Positions 17,834-41,306 of a stretch of DNA of 64,000 bases are shown piece by piece; position 1 is the first letter of the stretch; each line of letters opens with the position of its first letter. The notes under the pieces are model-generated. The model was not told where the DNA came from. It did not search any database and saw only the letters and a list, made by a program, of their open reading frames with translations. The position numbers and the translations under genes are program-made. Source of the DNA: Planctomycetota bacterium (GTDB lineage Bacteria; Planctomycetota; UBA8742; UBA2392); assembly GCA_016722065.1 (NCBI GenBank), contig JADKGX010000001.1, positions 1,036,951 through 1,100,950 on the forward strand, given 5' to 3'.

Positions 17834-18789
17834 TGGGCCGCGTGCTGGTTAGCGGCGGCGCGGGTTTTCTGGGCAGCCACTTGTGCGACGCGCTGCTGGC
17901 TGCCGGCCACGAAGTAACCGCGATTGACGACTTGAGCACCGGCACCCGGGCCAACTTGCAGGCAGCTGGCGCGCATGCCCGCTTTCACTTTGAACAAGCC
18001 GACGTCCTGCAACCCCTGTGCGGGCAGTACGACCGCCTGTATCACCTGGCTTGTCCCGCCAGCCCAGCACAATACCGGCGCGACCCCGTGCGCACCCTGA
18101 AAGTTGCTGTCACCGGCACGCTGCATGCGCTGGAGTTGGCCGCGCAAACCGGCGCCAGGCTGCTGCTGGCAAGCACCAGCGAAGTGTACGGCGACCCGCT
18201 GATTCACCCGCAACCCGAAAGCTACTTCGGCAATGTCGACACCCAGGGCACCCGGGCCTGCTACGACGAAGGCAAGCGCGCCGCCGAAACCCTGGTGGCC
18301 GACTTTGTTCGCACGCGCCGGGTCGATGCCCGCACTGCGCGCATCTTCAACACCTATGGCCCGCGCATGGCCCTGGCCGACGGGCGCGTGGTCACCAACT
18401 TCATTGTCGCGGCACTGCAGGGCAAGCCTCTGCAACTTACCGGCGGCGGCGGCCAGGGCCGCAGCTTCTGTTATGTCGATGACTTGATTGCCGGCCTGAC
18501 AGGCTTGATGGAAACCCATTCTGCCCACGCCAGCGCGCCGACCAACCTGGGCATGCCGCAGCAGATTTCCGTGCGCGAGCTGGCCCACTTGGTGATCCGC
18601 CTGACCGGCTCGAAGTCAACACTGGCCGACACACCCGGCGAAGCAGGCGACCCCGCGCGCCGTTGCCCGGATATCAGCCGGGCACGGGCGATGTTCGGCT
18701 TTGATCCGAAAACCGGGCTCGAGCAAGGCCTGCTGCGCACAATCGACTACGCCCGCGGCGCTTTGGCCTCTGCGGCAACCGTGCGGTAA
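17833..18789 (+). CDS. uxs: UDP-glucuronate decarboxylase (UDP-xylose synthase), SDR family
   Basis: [65 protein letters not shown] and DGRVVTNFI are all characteristic of UXS. Confidence 0.85.
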
Positions 18790-20999
18790 ACCGCGGCATA
18801 TTGGCTTGCGATGTTTGCGGGTGCGAAGCGCTGAAGGTTCGCAAACCCTGCCGTGACAAGCCGGCCCCGCAGCTCGGTATCACCAGACAGCGACTCTATG
18901 GCAGCGCGAATCTGGCTGCCATCGCGCGGGTCGATCAGCAACGCGCCGTCACCCGCCACCCAGTTCAAGGGCTCAATGCTTGATGTAACGACGGGCAGCC
19001 CGGCGGCCTGGGCCTCCACGACCGGCATACCAAACCCTTCGTACAACGAGGCAAACACCAGCGCGTCGGCCTCCAGGTAAGCGCGAATCATGCCCCCGTC
19101 ATCCAGCCCCACGGAATTGCGCCAGACCAGCCCCGAATCCGCCAGCAGCTCCCGCTGCGCCCCCGACAGGCCGCCCACCACATGCAACTGCCAGGGACCA
19201 CCACGCAGGGCTTTTACGACACTCTCCAGGTTCTTGTGCGGCAGGGTGCCGATCATCAGCAGTTTGTTGCCGTCGCGCTTGCCTGTGGCGCCGGTTGCGA
19301 ATCGGTCTGACACGCAGTTGGCAATCACCGTGGGCGGATGCGCGCCGCGCAAGCCGAACTCTTCGAGTTCGCGCAGCGTACGCGGCGAAATGACGGTGGT
19401 CGCCGCGGCCAGGGCCATAGGCCTTTCAAAGTAATACTTGCGAATCAGCCGCAGTTTCAGCCCGCGGGATCTAACCAGGTTCACGCAATCGTGAATCGTC
19501 AGGACCGCGCGCTGGGGCTGCAACCCCAGCACCAGGTAGTGCGCGTCGCCAACCACGTGAACGACTTCGGCCTTCAGCTTGCGCGCAAAGCGCAGGTTCA
19601 GAAGCCGGCGCAGCACCCCGCGCCCCACCCAGGGCGCGCGAATCATGGCCACGTCGATGTCGCCCGGCAGGTTGCGGCGCACCGTGGCAAACAGGTTTTC
19701 GATGCTGTAGTAACCTGGCCCCGGGGCGCGCTCAAAGTGAATCACCTTTACCACGCGCTTGGCCGTGGCGCGTTCCTGGGCGCGCGATGCAATCTGCGCA
19801 TACCGCCAGGCAAAGGCTTGCGCCCCCCACTGTGCCTGTGCGTCCTGGGCCCACTGCGCCCGTTGCGCTGGGGGCGGGTTTTCGGCCAGTCGTGCCTGTA
19901 CGGCCTCGCGCAGGGCTGGTTCGTTGCCAGCGGGCACAAGGCTGCCCCAGGGCTGGCGGCACCATTCGCGCACACCACCAACGTCAAAGGCCACCACGCC
20001 GCAGCCCTGGGCCACGGCTTCGGGCCCGGTCATGCCCCAGGCTTCAAACCAGCGGCCTGGCATCAACAGGCAAGACGCGCGGGCCATTTCGCGCGCCAGC
20101 GCCGGCGCATCCAGCCAGCCCAGAAACTGCACCCGGTCAGCAATGCCCAGGCGCGCGGCTTGTTCTCGCGCGGCAGCCTCGGCGGGCCCGGTGCCGGCAA
20201 CCGCCAGGTGCGTTGCGGGCAACGCCGCGCAAAGGGCAATCGCTTCATGCAGGCCTTTGAAGCCCTGCAATCGTCCACTGAACAACAGGCGCTGTGAGTC
20301 GCGGTCGACCTCAACCAAGTGCGGCTGGGGCAACGGCGGTTGCAGCACATAGCTGCGCCCGGGCACTCCCACAGTGGCATGAAACAAGCCTTCCAGCGCA
20401 TAGCTGTTGAAGACCGCCGCCCAGGCCAGGGCCACGGCCTGGCGGCTGAGTTTGCCTCGCAACGGCGCGCGCAGTTTCTGCAACATCGCAAAGGGTTCGC
20501 CCTGCTGCCCTGAAAGACAGCCCTGCGAAAGATCGACACCCAGGCAGGCCACGCCCGGCGCCCGCGAACACACACCCCCGCTGCGTAGCAGAATACGCCC
20601 GCCTGCCGGGCAGGTCAGTTCGGCCGTGTGCGCGTACAACAGGACAGGCAGTCGCCGCTGCAGTGCCTGCAGCAGTGCCGTCGGTGCGCTGCCGTGAAAC
20701 TCGACCATGTCGCAGCGGGCGGCAATCGCGTCGGCTGCGGCCTGGACGCAAGCCGCACTGGCCCGGTGAAGCGGGTGCAGGGATTCATTCAGCGCACCTG
20801 CCAGATCGAAGTGCCCGGCCTGCGGCGCGCCATCGTCCGTGAACACGCTGGTTTGTGCCCCCAGCTGCTGCTGGGCGCACAATAGGCGCTGTACATACAC
20901 TTCGGTGCCGCCCGCAAGCGCCAGCGAGCGCGTGACTACACCAATGCGCAGGCCCGCAAGCGCGGTCATGATGCTTCCTTCAGCAGCAGTTGGCGCCAT
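18747..20999 (-). CDS. Bifunctional glycosyltransferase (two GT4/GT-B modules)
   Basis: Two Glycos_transf_1-like C-terminal motifs: LLMPGRWFEAWGMTGPEAVAQGCGVVA and VFASLYEGFGMPVVEAQAAGLPVVTS. Confidence 0.75.
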   Translation of the reverse strand: MAPTAAEGSIMTALAGLRIGVVTRSLALAGGTEVYVQRLLCAQQQLGAQTSVFTDDGAPQAGHFDLAGALNESLHPLHRASAACVQAAADAIAARCDMVEFHGSAPTALLQALQRRLPVLLYAHTAELTCPAGGRILLRSGGVCSRAPGVACLGVDLSQGCLSGQQGEPFAMLQKLRAPLRGKLSRQAVALAWAAVFNSYALEGLFHATVGVPGRSYVLQPPLPQPHLVEVDRDSQRLLFSGRLQGFKGLHEAIALCAALPATHLAVAGTGPAEAAAREQAARLGIADRVQFLGWLDAPALAREMARASCLLMPGRWFEAWGMTGPEAVAQGCGVVAFDVGGVREWCRQPWGSLVPAGNEPALREAVQARLAENPPPAQRAQWAQDAQAQWGAQAFAWRYAQIASRAQERATAKRVVKVIHFERAPGPGYYSIENLFATVRRNLPGDIDVAMIRAPWVGRGVLRRLLNLRFARKLKAEVVHVVGDAHYLVLGLQPQRAVLTIHDCVNLVRSRGLKLRLIRKYYFERPMALAAATTVISPRTLRELEEFGLRGAHPPTVIANCVSDRFATGATGKRDGNKLLMIGTLPHKNLESVVKALRGGPWQLHVVGGLSGAQRELLADSGLVWRNSVGLDDGGMIRAYLEADALVFASLYEGFGMPVVEAQAAGLPVVTSSIEPLNWVAGDGALLIDPRDGSQIRAAIESLSGDTELRGRLVTAGFANLQRFAPANIASQYAAVYRTVAAEAKAPRA

Positions 21000-22150
21000 T
21001 GCTGGTGCGCCCGCCCATACCCAAAATGCGCCACGGCGTAGGCGCGGGCCGCAACAGACATCTGCCGCAATGCCGCCCGGTCAGCCGCCAGGCTGTGCAG
21101 CGCGGCAACCAGCTCCGAGACGGCTTGATCTGGCGGCTCGGGTGTAACCAGCATTCGCGTTTGCGGCGGCAACTCATGCAGCCCGCCCACGGCCGTGCAC
21201 AGTGGCACAACGCCATGCGCCATGGCCTCCATGACCACGACGGGAAACCCTTCACGTTCTGAAGCCAGCACCAGCACATCGGCCGACTCATATTCGGCAG
21301 CCAGGGCAGCGGGGTCGGTCAGCATGCCTGTGAATCGGCAGAACTGGCGGTCGCTGGCATCAACCACGGCTTCAACATCTCCCACCAGCGTGAAGCTTGC
21401 GGCCGGACCCATCGCCCGGGCGACGCGACCCACCAGGTGCACACGCTTCTCGGGCGTGCCCCTGCCCACGTACAACACACGCAACGGGCCGTGTGATTGG
21501 TGCGCGGACACATGGGCCGGAATCGGCACCGAGTTGCCAATCACCTGCACGCGGGCCATCCAGGCTGTGTTGATGCCCTCATGGCGATAGTGCGTGCGCA
21601 GTTTTTCGCGCAGGGTTTGCGTGATCACCACCCGGGCCTCCAGCCGCGCCACGTGGGGCAGGCTGTAGTTTTCAAAGTTAACACCAAAGTTGTGCAGCAG
21701 GTCGATACAGCGCACACCCTTCAGCCAGGGCAGCATGTCATAAAAGAAGTGGCTGAAGCACCCAAACACCGTGTGCACCTGCCCGCGCGAAATGCGCCCG
21801 CCCTGCAAACCAGCTTGAAAGTAGGCGCCCAGCCGATGGCGCAGTCGCCTGCCCAGTTGCACAACCGTTGCGCTGGATTCGAACTTGGCCAGCAACCCGG
21901 CATCACGGGGCAGTTCCGTGAACCACACTTCGGGCCCGTGATCGGCAATGGCTGCCACGATGTTGGCGTGCACTTGTTCCGCACCGCCCATGTTGGGCGT
22001 GGCCAGCACGCACACTACCGGCGCCCGCACCGGGTCCACAAACCACGCACACAGGCGGCCCAGGCCGCCCAGCACAAACCGCAAACCAGCCACGATCAAC
22101 CGCCTCAGAGACCCATCTCCTTGCGCACGACCTCTGCGCTGCGGTCCCAA
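20966..22150 (-). CDS. Glycosyltransferase family 4
   Basis: NMGGAEQV N-terminal motif. LVLASEREGFPVVVMEAMAHGVVPLCTAVGG GT1 motif. Confidence 0.7.
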   Translation of the reverse strand: MGPQRRGRAQGDGSLRRLIVAGLRFVLGGLGRLCAWFVDPVRAPVVCVLATPNMGGAEQVHANIVAAIADHGPEVWFTELPRDAGLLAKFESSATVVQLGRRLRHRLGAYFQAGLQGGRISRGQVHTVFGCFSHFFYDMLPWLKGVRCIDLLHNFGVNFENYSLPHVARLEARVVITQTLREKLRTHYRHEGINTAWMARVQVIGNSVPIPAHVSAHQSHGPLRVLYVGRGTPEKRVHLVGRVARAMGPAASFTLVGDVEAVVDASDRQFCRFTGMLTDPAALAAEYESADVLVLASEREGFPVVVMEAMAHGVVPLCTAVGGLHELPPQTRMLVTPEPPDQAVSELVAALHSLAADRAALRQMSVAARAYAVAHFGYGRAHQQWRQLLLKEAS

Positions 22151-23247
22151 TCAAACACCTCGACGCTGGCGCGCAGTGCCTCTTTGTCAAACGGCGCAAA
22201 GGTCTGCGGGTCCGCCAGCGCAGCAGCCCAGGCATCGGTGGTTGCTGCGGCAAAGCGCAGGTTCGGCCAGGCCAGCCGCTTCAGTTCACGAAGCGGGTTG
22301 CACAACATGGGTCGGCCCAGCGTGCTGAACTCTACGACATTCAGCGGCGTGGCGTCTTCTGTGACCGGCCGCGGCACATAGGGGTGCACGCCCGCATCGC
22401 AGGCCAGAATGTAGGCCGCGACTTCTGCCGGCGGCACCGGGCCAATGCAGTGCACGCCCTGCGCGGGCCCAAGACCCAGCGGCCCCGCAAGACGATCCGA
22501 CCCCGGCCCCACAATCAACAGGGCAAGCTGCGGCCGAAGCTGGTGTGCCCTGGGCCAGGCCTGCAACAGCATTTCCATGCCGTCAAAGGCCATGCGGTGG
22601 TTGCCAATGAACCCGACCACGAACCGATCTTTCAGCCCCAACTTTTCGCGCATCGCAAGCCCGGCCCCGGCCGGGCAAGCCAGCATTTCGGCGCGCGCGG
22701 CGCCATTGGGGGCATAGGCAGAAGCCCGACCTGTCAGCCGGTGGGCGTAGTCGCACAAGCTGTGGCTGCAGGCCGAAAGTGTATCGGCGCGCTGCATCGC
22801 GCTTTGCAGAAACTGCTTGCGCGCGCGACCCAGCGGCGTGTCGGGCCACTCGTCGTAGAAGTTGTCGATCACGTCAAAGTGCACGTGATAGTCGCGCTGC
22901 TCGCGCGGCGGTGGCAAAAAGAAGAACGGGTTGCCGTGAAACACATGCGTGCAGCCAAAGCGCCTCACCATGGCGGCAATTCGCGCGTTGTTGCGCCGGG
23001 CCGCCCAGTGGCAGAACGCGGGCCCCGTGGAAGCCCACACCGGCATGCGAAAGCGCGTGACCGGACCTTCACTGAGCACGCGGGTGGATGCCATGCGCAG
23101 TCGCCAGCGCATCTTCAGCCGCGCCCTGATGCTGTTGTCGGAGACGGTCACGGCCTCGCTGCGGTCCAGTGCAAACACAGGTGTGTGTGCGGCGACGCGG
23201 CGGGCCAGCTCGATCTCGCGCACGCGCAGATTCGGTGCAAACAGCAT
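22105..23247 (-). CDS. Glycosyltransferase (GT-B, GT4-like)
   Basis: Start moved to ATG 23247 (MLFAPNLRV..). The 87 upstream codons of the 467-aa ORF overlap the wecB tail region and look non-coding. GT-B-like C-terminal half (VVGFIGNHRMAFDGMEMLLQAW.., ..LNVVEFSTLGRPMLCN). Confidence 0.6.
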   Translation of the reverse strand: MLFAPNLRVREIELARRVAAHTPVFALDRSEAVTVSDNSIRARLKMRWRLRMASTRVLSEGPVTRFRMPVWASTGPAFCHWAARRNNARIAAMVRRFGCTHVFHGNPFFFLPPPREQRDYHVHFDVIDNFYDEWPDTPLGRARKQFLQSAMQRADTLSACSHSLCDYAHRLTGRASAYAPNGAARAEMLACPAGAGLAMREKLGLKDRFVVGFIGNHRMAFDGMEMLLQAWPRAHQLRPQLALLIVGPGSDRLAGPLGLGPAQGVHCIGPVPPAEVAAYILACDAGVHPYVPRPVTEDATPLNVVEFSTLGRPMLCNPLRELKRLAWPNLRFAAATTDAWAAALADPQTFAPFDKEALRASVEVFDWDRSAEVVRKEMGL

Positions 23248-23371
23248 GCGGCCAACCCACAACACGCCGCTCAATGCCCACCGCCGGCAAGCATGCGCAC
23301 GACATCGGCCGCGATACGCTGCGAGGCCTTGCCGTCTCCGTAGGGGTTGGGCAAGCCCTGCAGGCGCTGCT

Positions 23372-24394
23372 TCATGCCCTGGCCTTGCAGGGCCTGTTGC
23401 AGGCCGGTTCGTATTTGTCCGGGTCCGTGCCTGTGATGTGCAGAAAGCCTGGTGCGATACCCTCGGGCCGTTCGGTGTTGTCGCGTGTGACCAGCACGGG
23501 CGTGCCAAAACAGGGCGCCTCTTCTTGCAACCCGCCGCTATCGCTTACTACGCATGCGCTGTGTCGCAGCAGCCACAGGCTGGCGGCGTAGCTTACGGGT
23601 TCAATCACGCGCCAGTGAGCATGCGGCGAAATGCCCTGCAGTTCTCGGCGTACTTCCGGCGAAGGGTGGGCCGCAAACAGAACCGTCACGTCGTCGCGGC
23701 TGGCGGCCATTTCCCGCAGCACGGCCGCAACCCGTGCAATGCCACCATTTTGGTTCTCTCTTCGATGTCCGGTTGCGAACACCAGGCGTTGCCGGCAATC
23801 GGCCAGGGCCACGGCCAGCTCCGGTGGCGGGTCTGGCGGCAGTGTGGCCGCGACCTGCAAAGCTGCGTCCACGCCGGTCTGGCCGCTGACCAGAATCGAC
23901 GCGTCGGCCAGGCCCTCGCGCAGCAGGTTTTCGCGCGCGCCTTGCGTGGGTGCGTACAGCCGGGTTGCCAGGCGATCTACCATGGCGCGGTTCAATTCCT
24001 CCGGCCAGGGGGCATAGCGGTCGTGGCTGCGCAGACCCGCCTCAATGTGGCCGCAGGGCAAGTGGCGATAGTACGCCGCCAGGGCGCCCGCATAGGCGGT
24101 GGTCGTGTCACCCTGCACAAGTATCAGACGTGGCGGGTGCGCAGCCAGATCACCCTCCAGGCGTGTCACCAGTGTTGCCGTAAGGGCGCCCAGTGTCTGG
24201 CCTGGCGGCATGGAACCAGCATCGGCATCGGCCTTCAGCCCAAACGTGGCCAGCGCATCGTGCAACAGCGCCCCATGCTGGCCCGATGCCACCAGCCGTG
24301 TCGCGACGCCAGCGTGGCGCAAGGCGGCCAGCACCGGAGCAAGCTTGATCGCCTCGGGTCGGGTGCCCGCAAAGATGGTCACGTCAATTGGCAT
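23372..24394 (-). CDS. wecB: UDP-N-acetylglucosamine 2-epimerase (non-hydrolysing); the C-terminal ~45 residues are encoded in another frame down to 23271 (apparent frameshift)
   Basis: FAGTRPEAIKLAPV, VQGDTTT, HIEAGLRS and WPEELNR motifs. After ..GTDPDK the expected tail (IRTGLQQAL..LPNPYGDGKASQRIAADVVRMLAGGGH*) continues in a different frame after the T3 run at 23414-23416. Confidence 0.85.
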   Translation of the reverse strand: MPIDVTIFAGTRPEAIKLAPVLAALRHAGVATRLVASGQHGALLHDALATFGLKADADAGSMPPGQTLGALTATLVTRLEGDLAAHPPRLILVQGDTTTAYAGALAAYYRHLPCGHIEAGLRSHDRYAPWPEELNRAMVDRLATRLYAPTQGARENLLREGLADASILVSGQTGVDAALQVAATLPPDPPPELAVALADCRQRLVFATGHRRENQNGGIARVAAVLREMAASRDDVTVLFAAHPSPEVRRELQGISPHAHWRVIEPVSYAASLWLLRHSACVVSDSGGLQEEAPCFGTPVLVTRDNTERPEGIAPGFLHITGTDPDKYEPACNRPCKARA

Positions 24395-26384
24395 GGCCGC
24401 CTCTCAGGCGCTTGCCCAGGCGCAGCAGCGGCATGGGCGTCACGGCGCGCAGCAGCGCTTTATAGCCCGAAACAGAAAGCGGACGATGGCTGACAATGCT
24501 GCAAGCCGCGCGCAGGCTGCGCCACGCCAAACCCTGCCACTTATAGGCACCGGCCAGCCGCACCATCTGGGCGTGGTAGTCGGCATCCCAGTGCGCGGGT
24601 GTGCCGGCGATTGCCATGGCAGCTTCAAGTACTTCTGCTGGTCGGGTGCGCGTCAGGCTGTCGGGCGTGTCACCGTAATCATACAGCACCCGCGCCAGGC
24701 GGCCGATGCGCCCCACCTTGGACATGCGCAGCCAGTAGTCCCAGTCCTCGGCAAGTTTGCGGCCGGGGTCATAAACACCCACCTGGCGGGCGACCTCTGC
24801 GCGATACAGAAAGCATGCGCCCACCACATTGCGCGTTGCAAGTTCGCTGACCGGCCCGGTGCAGGTGGGCTTGCGGCTGCCGTCCTGAAAGCGCACTTCG
24901 TAATCTGCAAACACCATGGCCAGGGAAGTATCCAGCATCAGCTCTCGCGCCATGGCCTGCAGCGCTCCGGGCCGATAGGCATTGTCGTCGCTGGTCCAGG
25001 TCCACAAGTCGCCCGTGGCTGCCTCAAACCCTCGGTTGAGCGCAGTAGGCAGCCCCGCGTTTTCAAAGTGCAGCACGCGCAGGCGCGGATCGTTGCGCCG
25101 GGCCACGACCTGGTCCAGCACCTGGCGGGTAGCGTCGCGGCTGCCGTCGTTGACAACAATCAATTCCAGGTTGGGGTAGTTCTGGTCCAGCACATTGGCG
25201 ATCGCGGCCTCAATCAGCCCCGCGCGATTGAAGGTGGGCAGCACGACACTGACTTTGGGCCAATGCGGTTGCGTCAAGGTGCTGTACAGCGCGCTTTCGC
25301 GGGCCTCGACCACCGCAATGTCGTAGGGCTCGCTGGCGGTTCGCGCCGGAGCAGCCAGGCGTGCCCGGGTGGCCGGTTCGGCGATGTCGCAGATTGCCCG
25401 CGCAATGTCTGCCACACTCTCCGGGTCGCACAGCAATCCGTCCCACTGGTCAGTGACGATGGCATTCATCGGCGCGCGGCGGCTGGTAACGACGGGGACA
25501 CCGCAGGCCAGCGCCTCGGCGAACACAATGCCAAAACCTTCCCACAGGCTGGGCAACACAAACGCATCCGCCCAGCGCAGCCAATTGGGCAACTCGGCGT
25601 GGGGTATGGCATCAAAGTGCGTCACAAAGGGCCACCGAGACCAGTCGCGCGCGGATTTGCCCGCATGCACCAGCGTCAATCCCGGTTGTTTCAAGCGCGC
25701 CTGCTCACAGGCCGCCAGCAGCCGATCCAGATTCTTCTGTTCCACGTCGCGCGCGATGCAAAGTAGGCGCGGCGAACCGGCGGGGCCTTGTGCGGCCGGG
25801 CCCTGGGGCGTGAACACTTGCCGATCCACGCGGTTGGGCACGGTCACGACACGTGCAGGGTCCGCCCCTGCCGCAACGGCGGCGAAGGCCACCGCGTCGC
25901 TGACGCACATCACCACATCAGCCCCAGCCACTACGTTGGCTGCTATGCCGCGCACGTTGTGCACGCTGACCAAGCAGGGCACAGCCATTGCCCTGGCAAG
26001 TTCCAGCCCGATCTGCCCTGCCGCATCGGCATCGTAGGCGCGCACTGCAACCGGGTTGGCATCGCGCGCGGCCTGCAACCACTGGGCCGGCAGCCCGGGC
26101 CAGCCGGCCAGCATTTCAGAGCCCGAAACTACGTCCCGAATGCTGATGTCGCCGAGGCCTGACCGCCAGGCTGCAATCCCTGGCGCGGGCGTTGCCTGAA
26201 CCATCTGCGCGGCGAATGCCTCCGGTGCAGCCTCCTGCTGCCAGTTGAAGAATCGCGTCTGTGCAAAGCAGGCGGCCGGATTGTAGTAACGCTGCATCGC
26301 GGGTGGTTGCTGGCCTTTGGCAACCAGCGTGCCCAGCATGTCGCCGGTGACAATCAACAGGCTGCCCGTCGATGAGCCGGTCAT
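24384..26384 (-). CDS. Fused glycosyltransferase (N-terminal GT4 module + C-terminal GT2 module)
   Basis: GT4 motif FVLPSLWEGFGIVFAEALACGVPVVTS. GT2 motif VSVVLPTFNRAGLIEAAIANVLDQNYPNLELIVVNDGSRD. ATGA overlap with the upstream wzt. Confidence 0.8.
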   Translation of the reverse strand: MTGSSTGSLLIVTGDMLGTLVAKGQQPPAMQRYYNPAACFAQTRFFNWQQEAAPEAFAAQMVQATPAPGIAAWRSGLGDISIRDVVSGSEMLAGWPGLPAQWLQAARDANPVAVRAYDADAAGQIGLELARAMAVPCLVSVHNVRGIAANVVAGADVVMCVSDAVAFAAVAAGADPARVVTVPNRVDRQVFTPQGPAAQGPAGSPRLLCIARDVEQKNLDRLLAACEQARLKQPGLTLVHAGKSARDWSRWPFVTHFDAIPHAELPNWLRWADAFVLPSLWEGFGIVFAEALACGVPVVTSRRAPMNAIVTDQWDGLLCDPESVADIARAICDIAEPATRARLAAPARTASEPYDIAVVEARESALYSTLTQPHWPKVSVVLPTFNRAGLIEAAIANVLDQNYPNLELIVVNDGSRDATRQVLDQVVARRNDPRLRVLHFENAGLPTALNRGFEAATGDLWTWTSDDNAYRPGALQAMARELMLDTSLAMVFADYEVRFQDGSRKPTCTGPVSELATRNVVGACFLYRAEVARQVGVYDPGRKLAEDWDYWLRMSKVGRIGRLARVLYDYGDTPDSLTRTRPAEVLEAAMAIAGTPAHWDADYHAQMVRLAGAYKWQGLAWRSLRAACSIVSHRPLSVSGYKALLRAVTPMPLLRLGKRLRGGHAN

Positions 26385-28443: not shown

Positions 28444-28487
28444 TGTGCGAAACCGGCGGGTGCGCGATAGCCCAAACAAGCCGGGAC

Positions 28488-34400: not shown

Positions 34401-37400
34401 ACCTTGATCCCAGGTGATGCTGATAGTGGCTGTGCGCGGGCCTGTTGCCGAAGGCGTGAACACGCCTGAGAACACCATGTTGCCGGCAGCCGCCACGGTG
34501 GCCGGGAAAGCCGGCAGACCACTGAGTGCCCAATCACTGGCGTTGGCGCCACCCAGGGCAATGCCCGTGATTCGCATCGGGCCGGTGCCTGTGTTGTTCA
34601 CCTGGTGGTTTGTAGCGGGGCTGGTTGAGACGCCCAGGTTGCTGTTTCCGTAGTTCACGGGCGTCGTCACGCCGATCACGGCTTGGGTGCCCGTGCCGTT
34701 TACCGTGACGTCAAAATCACCGCTGGTGCCGCCGCTGTCACTTGTGATGCGCAGCAGGCTGCTGCGGGCACCTGTTGCGCCGGGCGTGAATGTCGCCGAA
34801 ATCAACACGTTGCCACCGGCCGCAATCACAATCGGGAAGCTTGGCGCAACGGTGAAGGCCCAATCACTGGCGTTGCCGGTCGTGAATGCCAAGGCCGTGA
34901 TCGTAAGCGGGCCAGTGCCCGTATTGTTCAGTGTGTGGCCCACAGGGCTGCTGGTGACGCCCACATTCGATGACCCATAGGCCACAGGCGTCGCGGTGGC
35001 CAGCGTTGCCACGGTGCCGGTACCGTTGAGTGTAATGTTGGTGATGGTCGTGCCCACGCCAGCACCTTGATCCCAGGTAATGCTGATTGTGGCTGTGCGC
35101 GGCCCAGTGGCCGAAGGCGTAAACACGCCGCTGAATACGATGTTACCTGAACCCGCCACGGTGGCCGGGAAAGCCGGCAGGCCACTGAGTGCCCAATCGC
35201 CGGCATTGGCGCCACCCAAGGCAATGCCGGTGATTCGCATCGGGCCGGTGCCGCTGTTGTTCACCTGATGGTTCGTGGCCGGGCTGGTTGGGACGCCCAG
35301 GTTGCTGTTTCCGTAGTTTACTGGCGTGGTAACGCCGATCACGGCTTGGGTGCCCGTGCCGTTTACCGTGACATCAAAATCGCCGCTGGTGCCGCCGCTG
35401 TCGCTGGTGATGCGCAAGAGGCTGCTGCGGGCACCTGTGGCGCCGGGCGTGAATGTCGCCGAAATCACCACGTTGCCACCTGCCGCAATCACAGTCGGAA
35501 AGCTTGGCGCCACGGTGAAGGCCCAATCACTGGCGTTGCCGGTCGTGAACACCAGGCCGGTAATCGTCAGCGGGCCGGTGCCCGTGTTGTTCAGCGTGTG
35601 GCCGACCGGGCTGCTGGTTACGCCAACATTCGATGACCCATAGGCCACTGGGGTTGTCGCTGACAGCGTTCCGACTGTGCCGTTGCCGGTCAGGGCGACA
35701 TCGGTCTGGGTATTGATCGGGCCTGTGGTGTTGCTGAAGAACCGCAAAGTTCCGTTGCGGCTGCCGGTGCCCTGCGGAATGAACCGCACCTGAAACGCCG
35801 TGTTGCCGCCCGGCGTAACGTTGATTGGAAAGGTTGGCGCGGGTGCGGTAAATGACCAGTCACCGCCATTGGCGCCCACAAAGCTGGCGCCAGAAATCGT
35901 CAGCGTTCCCGACCCGGTGTTCGTCACGGTGTGTGTGATCGGCGAAAGCGGCGAAACCGTAAACACGTTGGTCGTGCCGTAGTCCACGGGCCCCAGGGGT
36001 GTGCTCAAGGTAGCCACCGTGCCTGTGCCCGTTACATTGACGTCGGTCAACGTGTTGATGAAGCCACCGGAATCGCTGGTAAACCGCAGCGTGGAAGCCA
36101 GGGCCCCAGTCGCCGTAGGAGTCAGAACTGCCGTAACATTGGCGTTGCCGCCGGCAAGAATCACAATCGGCAGGCTTGGCGCCGGGCTGAACGCCCACAT
36201 CGCTGCCTGGCCACCCGTGAACTGAATGTTGCTGATCGTCAGCGTGCCCGTGCCTGTGTTGTTGATCGTGTGCGTCACGGGGGAAAGACTGCTGGGCGTG
36301 AACAGGTTACTGGTGCCGTAGGCCACGTTCAGGCTGGTCGTCAACACGCCCGCTGTGCCACTGCCCGAAACCGCAATGTTGAAGTTGCCGCTGGTGCCGC
36401 CTGAATCGCTGGTCACGCGCAACGTGGAGTTGCGTGCGCCCACAGCCGTTGGAATCAACCTGGCCTGAACGTTGTTGCTGGCACCGGGGCCAATCAACAT
36501 GGGCAGGCTGGGGGCAACCACAAAGCTCCAGTCCGCTGCGTCGCCGCCGACAAACGCCAGGGCGGTAATCGTCAATGTGCCGGTTCCGGTGTTGGTAAAG
36601 GTGTGCGTCACCGGCGACAGGTTCGTAGGCGAACCCAGGTTGCCGGTGCCGTAGTTTGCCGAGGCCGCGGTGCTGAGAGTGCCCACCAGCGCGTTGCCGG
36701 TTACCGATACATCCGTGAACTGGCCAGCCGGGCCACCGGTGTTGCTGGTAATGCGCAACGTCGCAGCACGGCCCCCTGTGCCCTGGGGCGTGAAACTGGC
36801 CTGTATGTTGACTGTTGCACCAATGCCAATGTTGAAGGGCAAGCCGGGCGCCGAAGTCACGGCCCAATCGGCGGCATTGGCACCAATGAAGTTCAGGGCC
36901 GTCACCGTCAATACGGCACTGCCGGTGTTGGTCAGTGCATGGGTGATCGGTGAAAGCGGAGAAGTCGTAAACACGTTGGTTGAGCCATAGTTCACCGGGC
37001 CCAGCGGCGTGCTCAAGATACCTGCGATGCCCGTGCCCGTGACGGCCACATTGCGCGTTGTGTAGGGTGCACTGGCGTTGGTGACGTTGCCACTGAAGGC
37101 ACCCGATGCCGCGGGGTTAAAGCGCACAAAGATCGTGGTCAGCGTCGCGGCTTGTGCCGGGGTACGTGACAGGCTTGCAAGCCAGGGCCCGCCCGCTGCC
37201 AGCGCTACTTCAAAGTTGGCCGGTGGCGTAATCACCAGGTTGGCAGCCAGGCCAACGCCCTGCACGTTGTAGCTTTGCGCAGCCGAAGCCGTGCTGACCT
37301 GCTGGTTGCCAAATGCCAAGGGCCCGGCCGTGCTGACGGTGATTCCTGCGCCCGTGCCGCTTACCGCCACGTTCTGGGTTGCAGCACCCGTGCTGGCGTT

Positions 37401-40400
37401 GCTGACATTGCCAGCAGCAGCACCCAGAGACGCCGGGTTGAAGCGAACAAACACGGTGGTGGAAGCCACTGTGCCGCTGGCCGGGACCAGGCTGAGGTTT
37501 GCAAGCCACGGCCCGCCCGCAGCCAGGGCAACCTGAAAGTTGGCCGGAGGCGTAACCACCAGGTTGGCCGCGAGGAACGTGCCCGACACGCTGTAACTCT
37601 GGGCGGCTGAGTTGGTGCCAATCTCGACATTGCCAAAGCTCAACGGCCCGCCCACCACGCTGATGGTCGGCACCACGCCAGTACCCGAAATCGCGTAGTT
37701 ACTGGTTGCCGTTGCCGGCATGGTGGCGTCAGAATTGTTCCAGGTGACCGTAATGTTGGCCGTGCGCAAACCGACTGCGCCCGGTGTGAACACGATGTTG
37801 TAGGTAGCCGTGCTGGCGCCTGCGGCAAGCACCCCACTGGGGGCGACGCCCTGAATGACAAAGTCGGATGCATTGGCGCCAGTGATGCGAATGCCGTTGG
37901 CCGGCACAGGCGCGGGCAACGTGAGCGAAAAGTTGCCCATGTTCTGCACCTGAAAGCCCTGGGCCGCGCTGGGCGCGCCAACAGCCACGTTGCCGAAGTT
38001 ACTGAAGCCGGCCGTGGGCACGCTTTTCACCTGCGCGCGCTCGGCCGGCACGTACTGCACAAACCACGAAATCAGGCGGCCCGTGCCGCCGTTGCCGTCG
38101 TCGGCAATCGCGATTGTCCAGTTGCCCGAAGGGTTGGTGCCGTACAGCGCGTTGAAAGCCGCCGTGCCTTCCTCAATGTAACCATTGGCCGCGGTAAACG
38201 GCGCCGTGCCGCCCGTGACCGGCGTGTTGCCCGGGCTGAACTGCCGGTCGCCGTTGCGCGAAAGCCGCGCGTACACAAATGAAACCGCGCCGGTACCGTA
38301 GTCATTGCCGGTGCCGCCGTTGTCGGTCGAAAGCTCAATCACCCCCGCGGGCGGTGTCACGTTGGCGCCGTTGTTGATCGTGGTGTAGGGGCCGGCCCAG
38401 GTCACACCGGGCGGAATCAGCCAGATATCCAGGTCTGCGTCGTTGGCGTGGTCAATACGAATGCCAATGCGCAACGCACCAATCAGGTCACTGGTGGCCG
38501 GAATCGTGATCGTGTCGGTAATACCCGCCGCGTTGTTGTCCGGGATGCTTTTGCCAAAGGGCGGCGTGCTTACATACGTGTTGGGCGGATTCAGCGGGTG
38601 CGCCCCGTAATCCAGCGGGTAAGGCGCAATTTCACTGGTTGAACCCACAATGTCGGCATTTGTCGCGTGGCGCAGCGAAAGCACCGTGTTAGCCGGCGAG
38701 GCCTGAACCGTACCCACAATCAGCAGGAACTCGGTGGCGCCAGAAGCAACATTGAAGCCACCGGCAATATTGAACGTGGCCACAGCGCCGGCCATGCCGC
38801 CGTTGGCCACCAGTGTATCCGTGCCGGGGTCATAGACGCCGTTGGCGTTGACGTCGCGGTACAACGCAATCGCACTGAGGTTATTGCCGATGTTGAAGTT
38901 GTTGACTTCACGGGCGGTAATCTGGGTGACGCTGTTGGCGCCAAAGTAAGCCGAAAGCTCCAGTTGCCCGAACACGTTGCCAGCCGTGCCCGTGGTGGCG
39001 GGCAAGCCGGGGTTGTTGCTGTCGCCTATGTTGGCCCAGAACTGCGGCGTCGTAATAGGCACGTATTCAAGTTGCCAGGAAACCAGATAGCCCACGTCCT
39101 GGCCCCAGGAATCGACGACGATCAACTGCCATGTTCCGCTGGGGTTGCCGTTGTAAGAAAGATTCCAGGCCGTGGTGCCTTCGACGCGATACTGCGGCTG
39201 GGCCGTGAACGGCGAACCGCCGCCCGTGATCAAGCTGGAAGCTGGCCACGTGGGGTCATTAGCGCCAGACAGGCGCGCATAGTTGTAGGTGTAACTAGTG
39301 GCGTTGCTGCCCCAGTTGTTGCCGCCGCCACCGTTGTCGGTGGACAGTTCAATCACTTGCGGCGGGGCGGTAATCACCGGGCCGTTGTTTGGCACCGCGT
39401 AAGGCGGGTTCCAGACCACTCCGGGCGGCAGAAGGTAGATGTCCAGGTCCTGGTCGTACGTGTGATCCAGCCGGATACCAACCCGCATCGAGCCAACACG
39501 GTCACTGGTGGCCGGAATGGTAATGCCGCGGGTGATGCCGACCTCGTCGTTGTCCGTAATCAGATCCGGCTGCCCCGGCCGATATGTGAAGGTCGTCGCA
39601 GTAACAAATGGGCGCGGCCCGGCGCGCACCGGAAACAAACCGTCTTCGGTTAGTGGAGACCCGATTGAGGCCGCCGACAGAATCTCAATCTGCATCGAAG
39701 CCGGGGCCGGAGCGGCGACAACTGTGCCAACCAGCAGCAGGTTCACGCCCGCATTGGCCCCAATAGCCTGGGCAAAGTTGAAGGTTGCGTTGGCACCAGC
39801 CAGCACGCCCGCAGCCAGCAGCGTGTCGCCACCATCCAGCAAGCCATCGCCGTTGTTGTCGCGATACAGCGAGGCCGCAGAAATCAGGCTGGTCAGCGTT
39901 GTGTTCGCCACCTCATGAAACACAATGCTGGTCAGGTTGTTGGCAGCCCCACCAACAGCTTCCATGCGGTACTGGCCCAGCACCTGGCCGGCCTGTCCGC
40001 GTGCGATGGGCAAGCCCGGGTCGTTGTTATCACCCAGGTGGGCATACAGCGTGTTTGCGGCCACGGGGGTATAGAGGATCTCCCAGCTCACCAGCGTGCC
40101 GGTGCCCGTGCCGGTGTCGTCAGCGACTATCAGCGTCCAATTGCCTGCGGCGGGGCGCCCGTACAGCAACTCCAACCAGTCCGAGCCCTCGGGTGAATAC
40201 ACCATGGTGGTAAACGGGGACACGCCCGTGGTGACCGACGCCAGGCCGGGGGTCACCGGGTCGCCAGCCGCCGAAAAACGCGCATAGGACGACGGGGCCG
40301 CAGTGGTGCCGTAGTTCGCGCCGCCGCCGTTATCGGTCGAAAGTTCAATCACACCGCGCGGAATCGGTACGTTCAGGGCCTCTGATTGCGTGGAAAACTC

Positions 40401-41210
40401 GTTGGCAACCAGCGTGTAAGGGCCTGCCCAGGTCACCCCCGGCGGAACAAGGTAGATATCCAGGTGCGTGTCGTTGGCGTGGCTGATGCGCAGCCCAACC
40501 TGCAAAGATCCAATCAGGTCACCGCTGGCAGGAATCGAGATCGTGCTGGCAACACCGGTGCGAGAGCCGTCGGGAATGGCAACTCCCGGGTCGGCAAAAT
40601 AGCCGTGCACGTAACGTACTTCCCAGGAAATCAGGGTGCCGGTCTGTCCGCCCTGGTCGTCCAGTACCACCAGTTTCCAGTCGCCAACCGGGCTGGTGCG
40701 GTACAGGGCATTGAAGTCGTTCACACCCTCTACGGTGTAACTGTTGGCTGTGAAGGGCGCAGAGCCCGCCGTGACCGCTTGTGTGGACTGAAACACCGGG
40801 TCGGTCGTTACGCTCAGGCGGGTGTAAACATAGGGCCCAGCCCCGGAGCCGTAGTTGGGGTTGTTACCGCCGTTGTCGGTGCTCAAATCCACCACGCCAG
40901 CCGGCGGCGGAGTTACATAGTTCGCGCCGCTGCGATTCCAGGTAACACCTGGCGGCACCAGGTACATATCCAGGTGTTGGTCGCGCGGGTGGTCCACACG
41001 CACGCCGATCTGAAGCGCGCCAATCTGATGGCCGTTGTAGGGCGCCGAGTTGGGTATCGTGATGGTGCTGTCTGCGCCAGCATCACTGTTATCAGGAATG
41101 GCAATGTTGGGCGAAGCCGACAACGAAACGACCTGCGCCGACAACCCGGATGCGAGTGCGATCAGTGCAACTAGTGCCAGTTGTCCGCACTTCGTCAAGC
41201 TGTCCCCCAA
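28488..41210 (-). CDS. Giant secreted surface protein (~4,240 aa): signal peptide, 4 proprotein-convertase-type P-domains, 19 Ig-like (choice-of-anchor-D/ASH-like) modules, 1 beta-sandwich, 18 Kelch blades
   Basis: Single uninterrupted ORF. P-domain motif repeated 4 times (IPD..G..S.I.IP....IG.L.VG.RI.H..D..LDIYL.PPGV.W ... W.L.V.D...G..G.L.SW.). 19 modules of about 111 aa (..H.L.NTGTGPLTI..L.F.GGNA.DW.F...P..P..I..G.......F.P...G.R...LRITSDSGG...F.V...GTGT). 18 Kelch-type ..R....GG.. blades. Start is TTG 41210 or, more likely, TTG 41198 (SD GGGGGA; MTKCGQLALVALIALASGLSAQ). Confidence 0.9.
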   Translation of the reverse strand: MGDSLTKCGQLALVALIALASGLSAQVVSLSASPNIAIPDNSDAGADSTITIPNSAPYNGHQIGALQIGVRVDHPRDQHLDMYLVPPGVTWNRSGANYVTPPPAGVVDLSTDNGGNNPNYGSGAGPYVYTRLSVTTDPVFQSTQAVTAGSAPFTANSYTVEGVNDFNALYRTSPVGDWKLVVLDDQGGQTGTLISWEVRYVHGYFADPGVAIPDGSRTGVASTISIPASGDLIGSLQVGLRISHANDTHLDIYLVPPGVTWAGPYTLVANEFSTQSEALNVPIPRGVIELSTDNGGGANYGTTAAPSSYARFSAAGDPVTPGLASVTTGVSPFTTMVYSPEGSDWLELLYGRPAAGNWTLIVADDTGTGTGTLVSWEILYTPVAANTLYAHLGDNNDPGLPIARGQAGQVLGQYRMEAVGGAANNLTSIVFHEVANTTLTSLISAASLYRDNNGDGLLDGGDTLLAAGVLAGANATFNFAQAIGANAGVNLLLVGTVVAAPAPASMQIEILSAASIGSPLTEDGLFPVRAGPRPFVTATTFTYRPGQPDLITDNDEVGITRGITIPATSDRVGSMRVGIRLDHTYDQDLDIYLLPPGVVWNPPYAVPNNGPVITAPPQVIELSTDNGGGGNNWGSNATSYTYNYARLSGANDPTWPASSLITGGGSPFTAQPQYRVEGTTAWNLSYNGNPSGTWQLIVVDSWGQDVGYLVSWQLEYVPITTPQFWANIGDSNNPGLPATTGTAGNVFGQLELSAYFGANSVTQITAREVNNFNIGNNLSAIALYRDVNANGVYDPGTDTLVANGGMAGAVATFNIAGGFNVASGATEFLLIVGTVQASPANTVLSLRHATNADIVGSTSEIAPYPLDYGAHPLNPPNTYVSTPPFGKSIPDNNAAGITDTITIPATSDLIGALRIGIRIDHANDADLDIWLIPPGVTWAGPYTTINNGANVTPPAGVIELSTDNGGTGNDYGTGAVSFVYARLSRNGDRQFSPGNTPVTGGTAPFTAANGYIEEGTAAFNALYGTNPSGNWTIAIADDGNGGTGRLISWFVQYVPAERAQVKSVPTAGFSNFGNVAVGAPSAAQGFQVQNMGNFSLTLPAPVPANGIRITGANASDFVIQGVAPSGVLAAGASTATYNIVFTPGAVGLRTANITVTWNNSDATMPATATSNYAISGTGVVPTISVVGGPLSFGNVEIGTNSAAQSYSVSGTFLAANLVVTPPANFQVALAAGGPWLANLSLVPASGTVASTTVFVRFNPASLGAAAGNVSNASTGAATQNVAVSGTGAGITVSTAGPLAFGNQQVSTASAAQSYNVQGVGLAANLVITPPANFEVALAAGGPWLASLSRTPAQAATLTTIFVRFNPAASGAFSGNVTNASAPYTTRNVAVTGTGIAGILSTPLGPVNYGSTNVFTTSPLSPITHALTNTGSAVLTVTALNFIGANAADWAVTSAPGLPFNIGIGATVNIQASFTPQGTGGRAATLRITSNTGGPAGQFTDVSVTGNALVGTLSTAASANYGTGNLGSPTNLSPVTHTFTNTGTGTLTITALAFVGGDAADWSFVVAPSLPMLIGPGASNNVQARLIPTAVGARNSTLRVTSDSGGTSGNFNIAVSGSGTAGVLTTSLNVAYGTSNLFTPSSLSPVTHTINNTGTGTLTISNIQFTGGQAAMWAFSPAPSLPIVILAGGNANVTAVLTPTATGALASTLRFTSDSGGFINTLTDVNVTGTGTVATLSTPLGPVDYGTTNVFTVSPLSPITHTVTNTGSGTLTISGASFVGANGGDWSFTAPAPTFPINVTPGGNTAFQVRFIPQGTGSRNGTLRFFSNTTGPINTQTDVALTGNGTVGTLSATTPVAYGSSNVGVTSSPVGHTLNNTGTGPLTITGLVFTTGNASDWAFTVAPSFPTVIAAGGNVVISATFTPGATGARSSLLRITSDSGGTSGDFDVTVNGTGTQAVIGVTTPVNYGNSNLGVPTSPATNHQVNNSGTGPMRITGIALGGANAGDWALSGLPAFPATVAGSGNIVFSGVFTPSATGPRTATISITWDQGAGVGTTITNITLNGTGTVATLATATPVAYGSSNVGVTSSPVGHTLNNTGTGPLTITALAFTTGNASDWAFTVAPSFPIVIAAGGNVLISATFTPGATGARSSLLRITSDSGGTSGDFDVTVNGTGTQAVIGVTTPVNYGNSNLGVSTSPATNHQVNNTGTGPMRITGIALGGANASDWALSGLPAFPATVAAAGNMVFSGVFTPSATGPRTATISITWDQGAGVGTTITTITLNGTGTQAVIGVTTPVNYGNSNLGVSTSPATNHQVNNTGTGPMRITGIALGGANASDWALSGLPAFPATVAAAGNMVFSGVFTPSATGPRTATISITWDQGGGVGTTITTITLNGTGTQAVIGVTTPVNYGNSNLGVSTSPATNHQVNNTGTGPMRITGIALGGANASDWALSGLPAFPATVAGSGNIVFSGVFTPSATGPRTATVSITWDQGAGVGTTITTITLNGTGTVGTLTTATPVAYGSINLFQTTSAVNHTLNNTGTGPLTITGLVFTTGNASDWAFTVAPSLPIVIAAGGNVVISATLTPSAVGARNSLLRITSDSGGTSGDFDVTVNGTGTVATLATATPVAYGSSNVGVTSSPVGHTLNNTGTGPLTITGLVFTTGNASDWAFTVAPSFPIVVAAGGNVVISATFTPGATGARSSLLRITSDSGGTSGDFDVAVSGTGTTGSMASASPVIYPTINVFQTGTAVTHTLSNTGSGPLSVTNLQFITGNASDWAFTVAPTYPINIGAGLNVNVQATFTPGAPGARSTLLRITYNSGGPSSDFDVVCNGTGTVGTLTTTTPVAYGSINLFQTTGAVNHTLNNTGTGPLTITGLAFTTGNASDWAFTVAPSFPIVIAAGSNVVVSATFTPGAVGARNSLLRTTSDSGGTSGDFDVAVTGTGTVGTLSTATPVGYGSLNLFQTSGAVNHTLNNTGTGPLTITGLAFTTGNASDWAFTVAPSFPIVIAAGGNVVVSATFTPGAIGGRNSLLRITSDSGGTSGNFDVTVTGTGTVGTLAAASPVDFGTGYVGSPSNLSPLTHTLNNTGTGPLTITGLAFTTGNATDWTFAVAPSLPVVVAAGGNFQFDAVFTPGATGARASLLRITSDSGGSSGDFDVTLTGNGVPPASVTAVTVSADNGGPLTVQATINGPVSTFIDVVVTYSGGANAGPPVLVSTSAGTISGNTILGVPSNTTITLVWDAYATERHTTAFNYVLTLSPFIGVQPGTPGSSPAFTLQRNGGWTQHVTPSEQATPVLGHVAVYDEANDRMVVFGGKIGTVRTNRVWVYERGPGSVLGWKMLSPSGTAPSSRQYSTALYDAANDRMVVFGGLADSGTSAQVWALDLTPGAEAWTLLAGASPATPAARYAASFTYDAGNQRALMHGGVGSGYQNDTWALDLTLGAESWGTGPVTTGGPSRSGQAAALDASGNRLVIYGGQSSTGTNADTWQMNLTTFSWSSVATAGAPGARYFGTYLYDSVSNRIVVQSGYNGGAVRVDGFAMPLSGPNQHVWSQLPGDPAAAAGRVQGAAAFDPVRQQGLFYGGFTGSVALVAFSVLDLSVQPPAFLGSPTLTSNTPPARWGATIVFDSFNNQLVLFGGKDANNYYSEIWVMDRSISGAPWVRLNVAGGPGARVYHAATFDAVNRRMIVCGGQDATGTRQADIWTLDLAGTPVWTAHAGSGPLGSIRHSLVYDSLTNRAIMHGGFTTTYVGTTWAYDFGLSAWTQLVPSGLAPAARYGHGAMFDAAQNRMVIFGGRHSSAFTNEVWSFELTTMGWTNISQVGGTQPVGRALFGCGNNTAGTMAWLFGGDTGVAQSDLWQLDVGGAIAAWTQLAFAAPAPSARTTHAGAYDGSRLVIGFGLLSGAPLRDVWQIDPSAPAAGWTQLGELASPSALAHTAVALDPVNRRLIAFGGLVDGLVDASLWSLDLASPIATWQRIDPPGARPGTRRTATMIYDAGSSRMILYGGRTGVADSTITDEVWALTLTPGSESWTLLATSGASPGKRAQHVAVVDGAGRMVIFGGRAETGAFLNTTYALNLSTLVWAQVAATGSINARIAAAAIYDPVGDRMILYGGSNNGTLTTLHSLNMSGAPAWTTMAKVGTAPAGLFYHSMVYDPALHRMLVYGGFNAFSEGRLFSMDLATNTWTEILPPVARPQNRWAHGAVWDAAGSRMVVVSGYLDGEVSAMQQGGLTDLWFWGD
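31711..38039 (-). repeat. Array of 19 Ig-like coding modules (~111 aa each) inside the giant gene
   Basis: Modules counted directly from the translation. Two subfamilies, A (112 aa, ..WALSGLPAFPATV..ISITWDQGAGVGTTIT) and B (109 aa, ..WAFTVAPSFPIVIAAGGNVVISATF..LRITSDSGGTSGDFDV), alternate in the centre. Confidence 0.85.
33678..34685 (-). repeat. Three tandem, near-identical 336-bp (112-aa) type-A modules
   Basis: Unit boundaries at 34685, 34349, 34013 and 33678, anchored on CAG GCC/T GTG ATT GGC (QAVIG). Copies differ at a few percent of positions, mostly synonymous. A fourth A copy lies at 35013-35348. Confidence 0.85.
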
Positions 41211-41277
41211 GACACAACCAACGGCGAGAATCCGTCGATTGGGCCATTACTAAGGAAGCAATCCAAAGCAGCCTGAA

Positions 41278-41306
41278 AGGCTATCGCATCTGGCGCCAGA
41301 GGTCAA
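41278..41306 (-). promoter_or_regulatory. Sigma-70-like promoter of the giant-protein operon with a palindrome in the spacer
   Basis: Minus strand: TTGACC (41306-41301), 17-nt spacer, TAGCCT (41283-41278). The spacer contains the perfect 12-bp palindrome TCTGGCGCCAGA (41289-41300). Confidence 0.45.

Follow-up and report, generated by a model that had tools for sequence, protein, structure and literature searches.

We analyzed a window of 64,000 nucleotides (C1:1036951–1100950) from a Planctomycetota metagenome-assembled genome (MAG; 3.86 Mb, 88 % complete), in which the gene for a giant secreted protein is followed on the minus strand by wzm, wzt and a run of glycosyltransferase (GT) genes. 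The stretch behind the giant gene (18747–28443) appears, from its genes and their conservation, to be an autonomous operon for a glycan exported by an ATP-binding cassette (ABC) transporter, independent of the giant gene in cis. Our favored reading, to which we give a probability of roughly 0.55, is that this is an O-polysaccharide (O-PS)-type, lipid-linked glycan operon that stands behind the giant gene through inherited synteny and is probably read through from it. An earlier note on this DNA had proposed a dedicated system for glycosylating the giant protein. That model failed its defining test because no O-oligosaccharyltransferase (O-OTase) of the Wzy_C type is present in the operon or the genome, leaving a protein-glycosylation claim without its defining enzyme. 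The locus is best read as an ordinary O-PS-type operon with a suggestive, lineage-specific neighbor.

Gene content of the glycan operon

Genes were called from a listing of open reading frames (ORFs), Pfam matches and inspection of start codons, and the starts were checked against orthologues that align from residue 1–6. These sources agreed on the gene order, the common minus strand and the short gaps or overlaps described in the earlier note: giant gene, wzm, wzt, a GT4-GT2 fusion, wecB, a GT gene, a GT4 gene and a double GT4 gene (Table 1). Downstream of wzm, the junctions are ATGA overlaps, one 11-nt overlap and one 5-nt gap, and the GT genes are translationally coupled. For comparison we used 23 species genomes of one uncultured Planctomycetota family, labeled such that G000 is this genome and G001 and G002 are its congeners (genus g1).

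Wzm matched PF01061 (66.6 bits, E = 3e-18) and has about four hydrophobic spans; its closest solved relative is Wzm of Aquifex aeolicus (6m96_B, E = 2.3e-18). Wzt matched PF00005 at 70.3 bits and, at its C-terminus, PF14524 (Wzt_C) at 41.3 bits against a cut-off of 30.4, with A. aeolicus WzmWzt as its closest solved relative (8dku_A/7k2t, E = 1.7e-54). The genome holds no second Wzt-type gene. Wzm is the sole polytopic protein of the operon, which encodes no periplasm-facing transferase. The four GT proteins, none with convincing membrane spans, contain six GT domains; the count of five GT modules given earlier was therefore corrected.

Comparing reading frames with the orthologues of G001 and G004 showed that the conserved ...LPNPYGDGKAS... 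tail of WecB runs on in another frame to 23271, bearing out the earlier view that a frameshift had shortened this call. The corrected stop overlaps the TTG start (23274) of the next GT gene, a start backed by orthologues that align from residue 1–4. Because wecB is missing at this position in G002 and G013, the supply of N-acetylmannosamine (ManNAc) looks dispensable for the glycan module.

Elsewhere, the genome carries an LpxC gene and, outside the cluster, two PNPT genes (PF00953), one of them presumably MraY; no PHPT gene (PF02397) was found in the genome. This combination fits a putative WecA-primed, undecaprenyl-linked pathway of the O-PS type in a lipid A-producing diderm. If established O-PS pathways are a guide, undecaprenyl phosphate would be primed by a WecA-type PNPT whose gene lies elsewhere, the sole step with a basis at the gene level. 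The four soluble glycosyltransferases, with their six GT domains, would then build the chain in the cytoplasm, with ManNAc from WecB as an optional contribution. The C-terminal domain of Wzt would recognize the finished chain for export by Wzm/Wzt, and the chain would end on a lipid acceptor, for instance lipid A-core or another lipoglycan, with no dedicated protein-glycosylation step. An ordinary O-PS pathway in an LpxC-bearing organism fully explains the gene content.

The likeness to known ABC-dependent systems extends over several features. As in the polymannan systems of E. coli O8/O9a (Wzm/Wzt, WbdA-D) and in A. aeolicus WzmWzt (6M96, 7K2T, 8DKU), an ABC-2 permease is paired with an ATPase that has a C-terminal carbohydrate-binding domain. 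Multi-domain GT4/GT2 proteins are coupled downstream, a candidate PNPT-type initiator is encoded elsewhere, and methyltransferases occur in the clusters of relatives, all as in ABC-dependent O-PS pathways. Unlike those pathways, the operon stands directly behind a giant secreted-protein gene, it has no WbdD-like kinase/methyltransferase ruler, and no WaaL (PF04932) is recognizable family-wide. As for a chain-terminating enzyme recognized by Wzt_C, the operon contains no methyltransferase or kinase, and the methyltransferase found in relatives has no homologue in this genome.

Synteny of the giant gene and wzm

The earlier note had pointed to comparative genomics as a check on the linkage of the giant gene to wzm, and the comparison did reveal recurrent adjacency. 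Full-length Wzt orthologues (48–69 % identity) were found in 20 of the 23 family genomes. Twenty genomes have both genes, and in 13 of them the giant gene lies directly upstream of wzm on the same strand (G000, G001, G002, G005, G006, G009, G010, G012, G013, G018, G019, G021 and G022), separated by a gap of about 45 nt or by a methyltransferase gene alone. A probable fourteenth case is G020, which is fragmented and consistent with the adjacency. A 2.2-kb insert, carried on the opposite strand, separates the two genes in G014, and the genes are unlinked in five genomes (G003, G004, G007, G011 and G015). Of the others, G008 has the giant gene and no detected wzt (assembly 87 % complete), and G016 and G017 have neither gene. 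Six more public contigs show the order recJ / giant-[methyltransferase]-wzm-[methyltransferase]-wzt-GT4GT2-wecB; these were not counted as independent lineages, as several have spacers identical to those of GTDB genomes and are probably conspecific.

The glycan module did not depend on this neighbor. The order wzm-wzt-GT4GT2-(wecB)-GT-(GT4)-GT4 is kept whether or not the giant gene adjoins, and every family locus examined has the GT4-GT2 gene directly behind wzt. Where the linkage is broken, unrelated genes come next after the giant gene (fhs in G004; elsewhere mnmA or a gene for a PALP enzyme or TPR protein). Since fhs in G004 lies only 76 nt downstream of the giant gene on the same strand, close packing against an unrelated gene is also seen. 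The giant gene is adjoined by recJ in at least 12 family genomes, at least as often as by wzm, and G004, with its wzm elsewhere, is among them. On the Wzt tree the linked or unlinked state changes at least four times. The Wzt of G002 groups with genus g5, not with G000 and G001 (97/97 support), a placement that hints at exchange of glycan modules and suggests that the module has been passed laterally within the family.

We concluded that the arrangement recJ / giant-[methyltransferase]-wzm, as judged from these genomes, is most simply an inherited synteny within one Planctomycetota family. Of the operon layout claimed earlier, the common strand and the short gaps stood, and the adjacency recurs within the family; the linkage itself has been broken at least four times with both partners kept.

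Three further observations concern these loci. The absence of both the giant gene and wzt from G016 and G017 (Fisher p ~0.01) was rejected as evidence, because the genes are adjacent in those genera and one deletion or one missing contig in a MAG that is 82–84 % complete removes both. G012 has a second wzt on a 12.9-kb contig, nearly identical to that of G011, which could reflect contamination or transfer. Lastly, fhs lies here at 58471–60159 of the window, on the recJ side and beyond a seven-gene TPR array, and directly after the giant gene in G004 (L051:3670–5358); these positions indicate a history of inversion or insertion around the giant gene.

Probable transcription across the junction

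Strand and gaps fit a single transcription unit from the giant gene through the double GT4 gene, and no convincing terminator interrupts it. The scan flagged a weak hairpin at 28500–28481, across the stop codon of the giant gene, with a marginal stem of 5–7 bp and no proper U-tract. Results showed no significant secondary structure at the giant gene–wzm junction relative to shuffled sequence (z = +0.97). With no excess folding over shuffled sequence and no counterpart in orthologous junctions, the hairpin was dismissed as evidence of an independent transcript. The scan found no consensus promoter in 18000–30000. With no detectable terminator or structure at the junction and no consensus promoter, transcription could plausibly run on from the giant gene into wzm, and we consider that in this genome the glycan operon is probably transcribed from the giant gene's promoter.

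That promoter itself is a modest candidate. The element TTGACC-N17-TAGCCT, which had been noted as promoter-like at 41278–41306, matches at 8 of 12 positions and scores under the threshold of the promoter scan. Both hexamers and the 17-nt spacing are kept in the congener G001; the spacer sequence, including its palindrome, is not kept.

The junction contains a short conserved motif. GCACAAT (28444–28450) recurs 0–8 nt ahead of the start codon of whatever gene comes next after the giant gene, be it wzm or a methyltransferase gene, in genera g1 and g5, and genus g4 keeps CCGTATCTTCTTGC(C)TATG in its place. The motif could be a translation-initiation or processing signal. A role as a −10 element was considered and not adopted; the motif overlaps the wzm ATG here.

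In many relatives a class I S-adenosylmethionine (SAM) methyltransferase gene (214–249 aa) separates the giant gene from wzm. Certain clusters add methyltransferase genes in the wzm–wzt interval and behind wzt, for a total of one to four (four in L079). By analogy with methyl-capped O-PS, these enzymes could be chain terminators or modifiers. Because this genome is without a homologue, a methyltransferase deletion may have left the 44-nt spacer ahead of wzm as its scar.

A different arrangement was seen in G003, G011 and G014, where the gene of a 182-aa NusG-like paralogue (N-terminal NusG domain and KOW) stands directly upstream of wzm in divergent orientation. Behind it in G014 and G011 lies a gene for a 495-aa membrane protein without Pfam matches; a 564-aa ORF upstream of wzm in G011 was discarded as spurious, being antisense to the real 495-aa gene, which is homologous to that of G014. 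A tblastn search found no homologue of the NusG-like paralogue in this genome. It may be an operon-specific antiterminator of the RfaH/UpxY type, and a divergent gene of this kind is the mark of an autonomous polysaccharide operon.

Table 1. Positions of the genes and elements discussed, in the window unless a contig (C) or related locus (L) is named
Feature	Position	Strand	Remarks
Giant secreted protein gene	28488–41198	−	4,236 aa from TTG 41198; alternative TTG 41210
Spacer, giant stop to wzm ATG	28444–28487	−	44 nt; GCACAAT directly before ATG
wzm, ABC-2 permease	27649–28443	−	PF01061
wzt, ATPase with C-terminal Wzt_C	26381–27652	−	PF00005 + PF14524; start overlaps wzm stop (ATGA)
GT4-GT2 two-domain glycosyltransferase	24384–26384	−	ATGA overlap with wzt; 11-nt overlap with wecB
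wecB, UDP-N-acetylglucosamine (UDP-GlcNAc) 2-epimerase, frameshifted	23271–24394	−	Annotated frame 24394–23372; PF02350, E = 3.7e-79
GT-B glycosyltransferase	22105–23274	−	389 aa from TTG 23274; Glyco_trans_1_4 match; then 5-nt gap
GT4 glycosyltransferase	20966–22099	−	377 aa; overlaps double GT4 gene by ATGA
Double GT4 glycosyltransferase, last operon gene	18747–20969	−	740 aa; two Glycos_transf_1 stretches
Convergent block	14961–18789	+	703-aa protein with topology like a polysaccharide co-polymerase (PCP); Wza-type Poly_export protein; NAD-dependent epimerase
518-aa polytopic membrane protein	13298–14854	−	'Wzy_C-like' candidate
GT4	12180–13301		In run headed by 518-aa gene
MBOAT	10743–12167		In run headed by 518-aa gene
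recJ	41613–43349	+	Divergent neighbor of giant gene; synteny control; TIGR00644, 523.6 bits
Weak sigma-70-like element TTGACC-N17-TAGCCT	41278–41306	−	In 400-nt recJ/giant divergent intergenic region
Methyltransferase gene between giant gene and wzm, relatives	L032:4053–4739 (G013); L031:4782–5438 (G001)		Also L077–L079, L082
NusG-like gene, relatives	L034:15300–15848 (G014); L045:5194–5736 (G003); L037:4157–4693 (G011)
Example exoproteins with giant-protein composition	C2:959155–964782; C1:1732561–1738095; C1:1526983–1531338 (G000)

At its far end the operon meets the convergent block listed in Table 1. The double GT4 gene (−) and the NAD-dependent epimerase gene (+) overlap at their 3' ends by 43 nt (18747–18789), so that there is no space for terminators between the two transcription units. 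The block is part of a separate exopolysaccharide (EPS) module of the Wzy/Wza type and not of the operon, and it adjoins the operon in genus g1 only.

The giant protein and the possible destination of the glycan

The giant protein begins with a signal peptide ending ...LASGLSAQ and comprises P-domain modules, HYDIN/ASH-type immunoglobulin-like (Ig) repeats and three C-terminal Kelch propellers. The earlier description of it as Thr/Ser-rich held: Thr makes up 13.0 % and Ser 8.3 % of its residues, against a genome background of about 5 % each, and Lys, Glu and Cys are scarce. Its gene is single-copy, present in 21 of the 23 family genomes and in none of 38 genomes outside the family. NCBI names the orthologues 'choice-of-anchor D domain-containing protein' and labels the sources of the homologous proteins as Planctomycetes or Planctomycetota MAGs. 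Their total length ranges from 2,416 to 4,504 aa; the C-terminal ~1,240 residues are the best conserved part and the N-terminal modules vary.

The composition of the giant protein is shared within its own genome. Of the ~2,500 G000 ORFs that reach 300 aa or more, about 25 secreted proteins (~1 % of genes) resemble it, with Lys < 1 %, Glu ~1–2 %, Ser+Thr 18–28 % and signal peptides ending ...A(A/L/S)AQ or similar (examples in Table 1). These Lys-poor, Ser/Thr-rich exoproteins look like a distinct class.

Several points weigh against the reading of a lipid-linked glycan whose operon inherited its place. The adjacency with gaps of 10–47 nt persists in 13–14 of 20 genomes and three genera, among giant proteins of 36–54 % identity, a degree of retention that neither the region past recJ nor the one past the last GT gene reaches. 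In G004, where the wzm operon lies apart from the giant gene, it stands 90 nt behind the gene of a different secreted protein (1,212 aa, L035:4972–8610) with He_PIG, LTD (Lamin-tail) and GEVED domains, 23 % Ser+Thr, 0.2 % Lys, 0.9 % Glu and the same ...GLSAQ signal-peptide end. No ligase of the WaaL type was recognized, and the lipid acceptor is itself inferred. We also found no recognizable anchor motif in the giant protein.

One alternative is that the undecaprenyl-linked glycan exported by Wzm/Wzt is moved en bloc in the periplasm onto Ser/Thr residues of the giant protein by a transferase encoded in trans, for example the 518-aa membrane protein, much as in S-layer glycosylation (slg) clusters or for the adhesin EmaA. 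The operon-like layout kept in most of the family and the Ser+Thr content of the giant protein, 21 % overall and up to 30 % in the Ig repeats (residues 1400–3200), are what such a system could look like. The Thr-richness is, against this, common to the ~25 other secreted proteins of the genome, and the linkage to wzm has repeatedly been broken.

The precedents for such covalent glycosylation match this locus in part. In the slg clusters of Geobacillus stearothermophilus NRS 2004/3a and G. tepidamans, a surface-protein gene also stands beside wzm, wzt and overlapping GT genes (PMC2943079). The slg analogy drawn in the earlier note thus survives at the level of layout; slg clusters, however, contain the Wzy_C O-OTase WsaB (WsfB) and the PHPT initiator WsaP, neither of which is in the cluster or genome here. 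Moreover, slg S-layer genes are transcribed monocistronically, apart from the slg cluster, and only some species have them next to it; chain growth in these systems ends with methylation, which Wzt reads (PMC2943079). Unlike the slg hosts, this bacterium is a diderm and has lipid A. EmaA of Aggregatibacter actinomycetemcomitans is a large adhesin of a Gram-negative bacterium, for which sugars derived from O-PS have been proposed in a WaaL-dependent modification (bioRxiv 10.1101/2022.10.31.514599). The EmaA system differs in having a canonical WaaL, which is lacking here, and its adhesin and O-PS genes do not form one operon. Within the phylum, the S-layer protein Kustd1514 of 'Ca. Kuenenia stuttgartiensis' was reported in 2016 as the first characterized planctomycete glycoprotein, and its O-linked, heavily methylated glycan parallels the several methyltransferase genes (up to four) in the clusters of relatives (PMC5088730). 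The Kustd1514 glycan differs in being a short non-repeating hexasaccharide, and PMC5088730 names no biosynthetic genes.

The enzyme needed for such a transfer was sought in the 518-aa protein, which has about 10 hydrophobic spans and had been called Wzy_C-like. Its polytopic nature stood, and the Wzy_C label held at the level of the predicted fold only. Pfam and NCBIfam searches gave no Wzy_C (PF04932) match at E <= 0.1, only trivial matches to DUF3325 and HpsL; a profile of the family had no hits among PDB sequences; and hhalign, run against four Wzy_C proteins from planctomycetes, returned a probability of 8.8 % for the family. With all of these searches failing, fold similarity alone remains for the 13298–14854 ORF and its identification as Wzy_C was rejected. 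The 27 homologues are hypothetical proteins of Planctomycetota MAGs without Pfam domains. An AlphaFold2 model (predicted local distance difference test, pLDDT, 77.5; predicted TM score, pTM, 0.83) matched WaaL 7tpg_B in Foldseek (E = 4.5e-4, TM 0.45/0.55), with FtsW 8p1u and RodA about equal. The predicted structure therefore places the protein within the superfold common to WaaL, Wzy and SEDS proteins, without closer assignment. A catalytic His in a large periplasmic loop is required in WaaL and PglL. No invariant or near-invariant His was seen among 18 aligned homologues of the 518-aa protein.

The distribution of the 518-aa gene also speaks against a role in glycosylating the giant protein. 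All 23 family genomes carry it as a single copy, among them G016 and G017, where both the giant gene and wzt are missing. Genus g1 and G003 alone have it close to the wzt cluster; elsewhere it sits on other contigs or hundreds of kb away. Its local partners (GT4, MBOAT, the PCP-topology protein and Wza) suggest a role as the Wzy-type polymerase of a separate EPS. PF04932 itself had no hit in this genome and none above cut-off in the 16 family genomes searched, by a search that was positive in 9 control genomes. That is, the O-antigen ligase of this lineage, if any, is unrecognized: G000 has LpxC, and PF04932 did not appear above cut-off in those 16 genomes. On balance we regard covalent transfer to the giant protein as unlikely.

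A second alternative is that the glycan is a lipid-anchored surface polymer to which the giant protein binds non-covalently, through its C-terminal beta-sandwich and triple-Kelch region, so that the two make one surface structure. The pattern of conservation, strongest in the C-terminal ~1,240 residues with variable N-terminal modules and overall length, is consistent with such binding, as are the missing anchor motif, the conserved adjacency and the confinement of the giant protein and this Wzt orthologue group to the same family. A precedent is RsaA of Caulobacter crescentus, which is bound to O-antigen (PMC6978808). RsaA too is a secreted protein without a membrane anchor in a diderm with an O-antigen-type glycan, and its case suggests how protein and polymer could be joined non-covalently. 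RsaA differs in that it leaves the cell by type I secretion and binds O-antigen through an N-terminal domain; the giant protein has a Sec signal peptide and Kelch/Ig modules. Against such anchoring, the linkage is broken in five genomes, and G008 has the giant gene and no detectable wzt, albeit in an assembly only 87 % complete. The grouping of the G002 Wzt with another genus implies that modules were exchanged while the giant gene stayed, which argues against tight co-adaptation. We likewise regard non-covalent anchoring as unlikely.

It is quite improbable that the giant Kelch/Ig protein and the Wzm/Wzt-exported glycan, heavily methylated in relatives, form one lineage-specific surface structure joined by the family-wide 518-aa protein as a transferase without a Wzy_C signature; if true, that protein would be a new kind of O-OTase or ligase in a lineage with lipid A and no recognizable WaaL.

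An O-PS-type, lipid-linked glycan operon behind an inherited neighbor remains the reading we prefer. Planctomycete protein glycosylation and surface-layer biology are little known, and an LpxC-bearing family without a canonical WaaL raises the question of what ligates its glycans. The conserved pairing of a giant secreted protein with the sole O-PS-type exporter of a genome would be an entry point to the outermost layer of these diderm bacteria.

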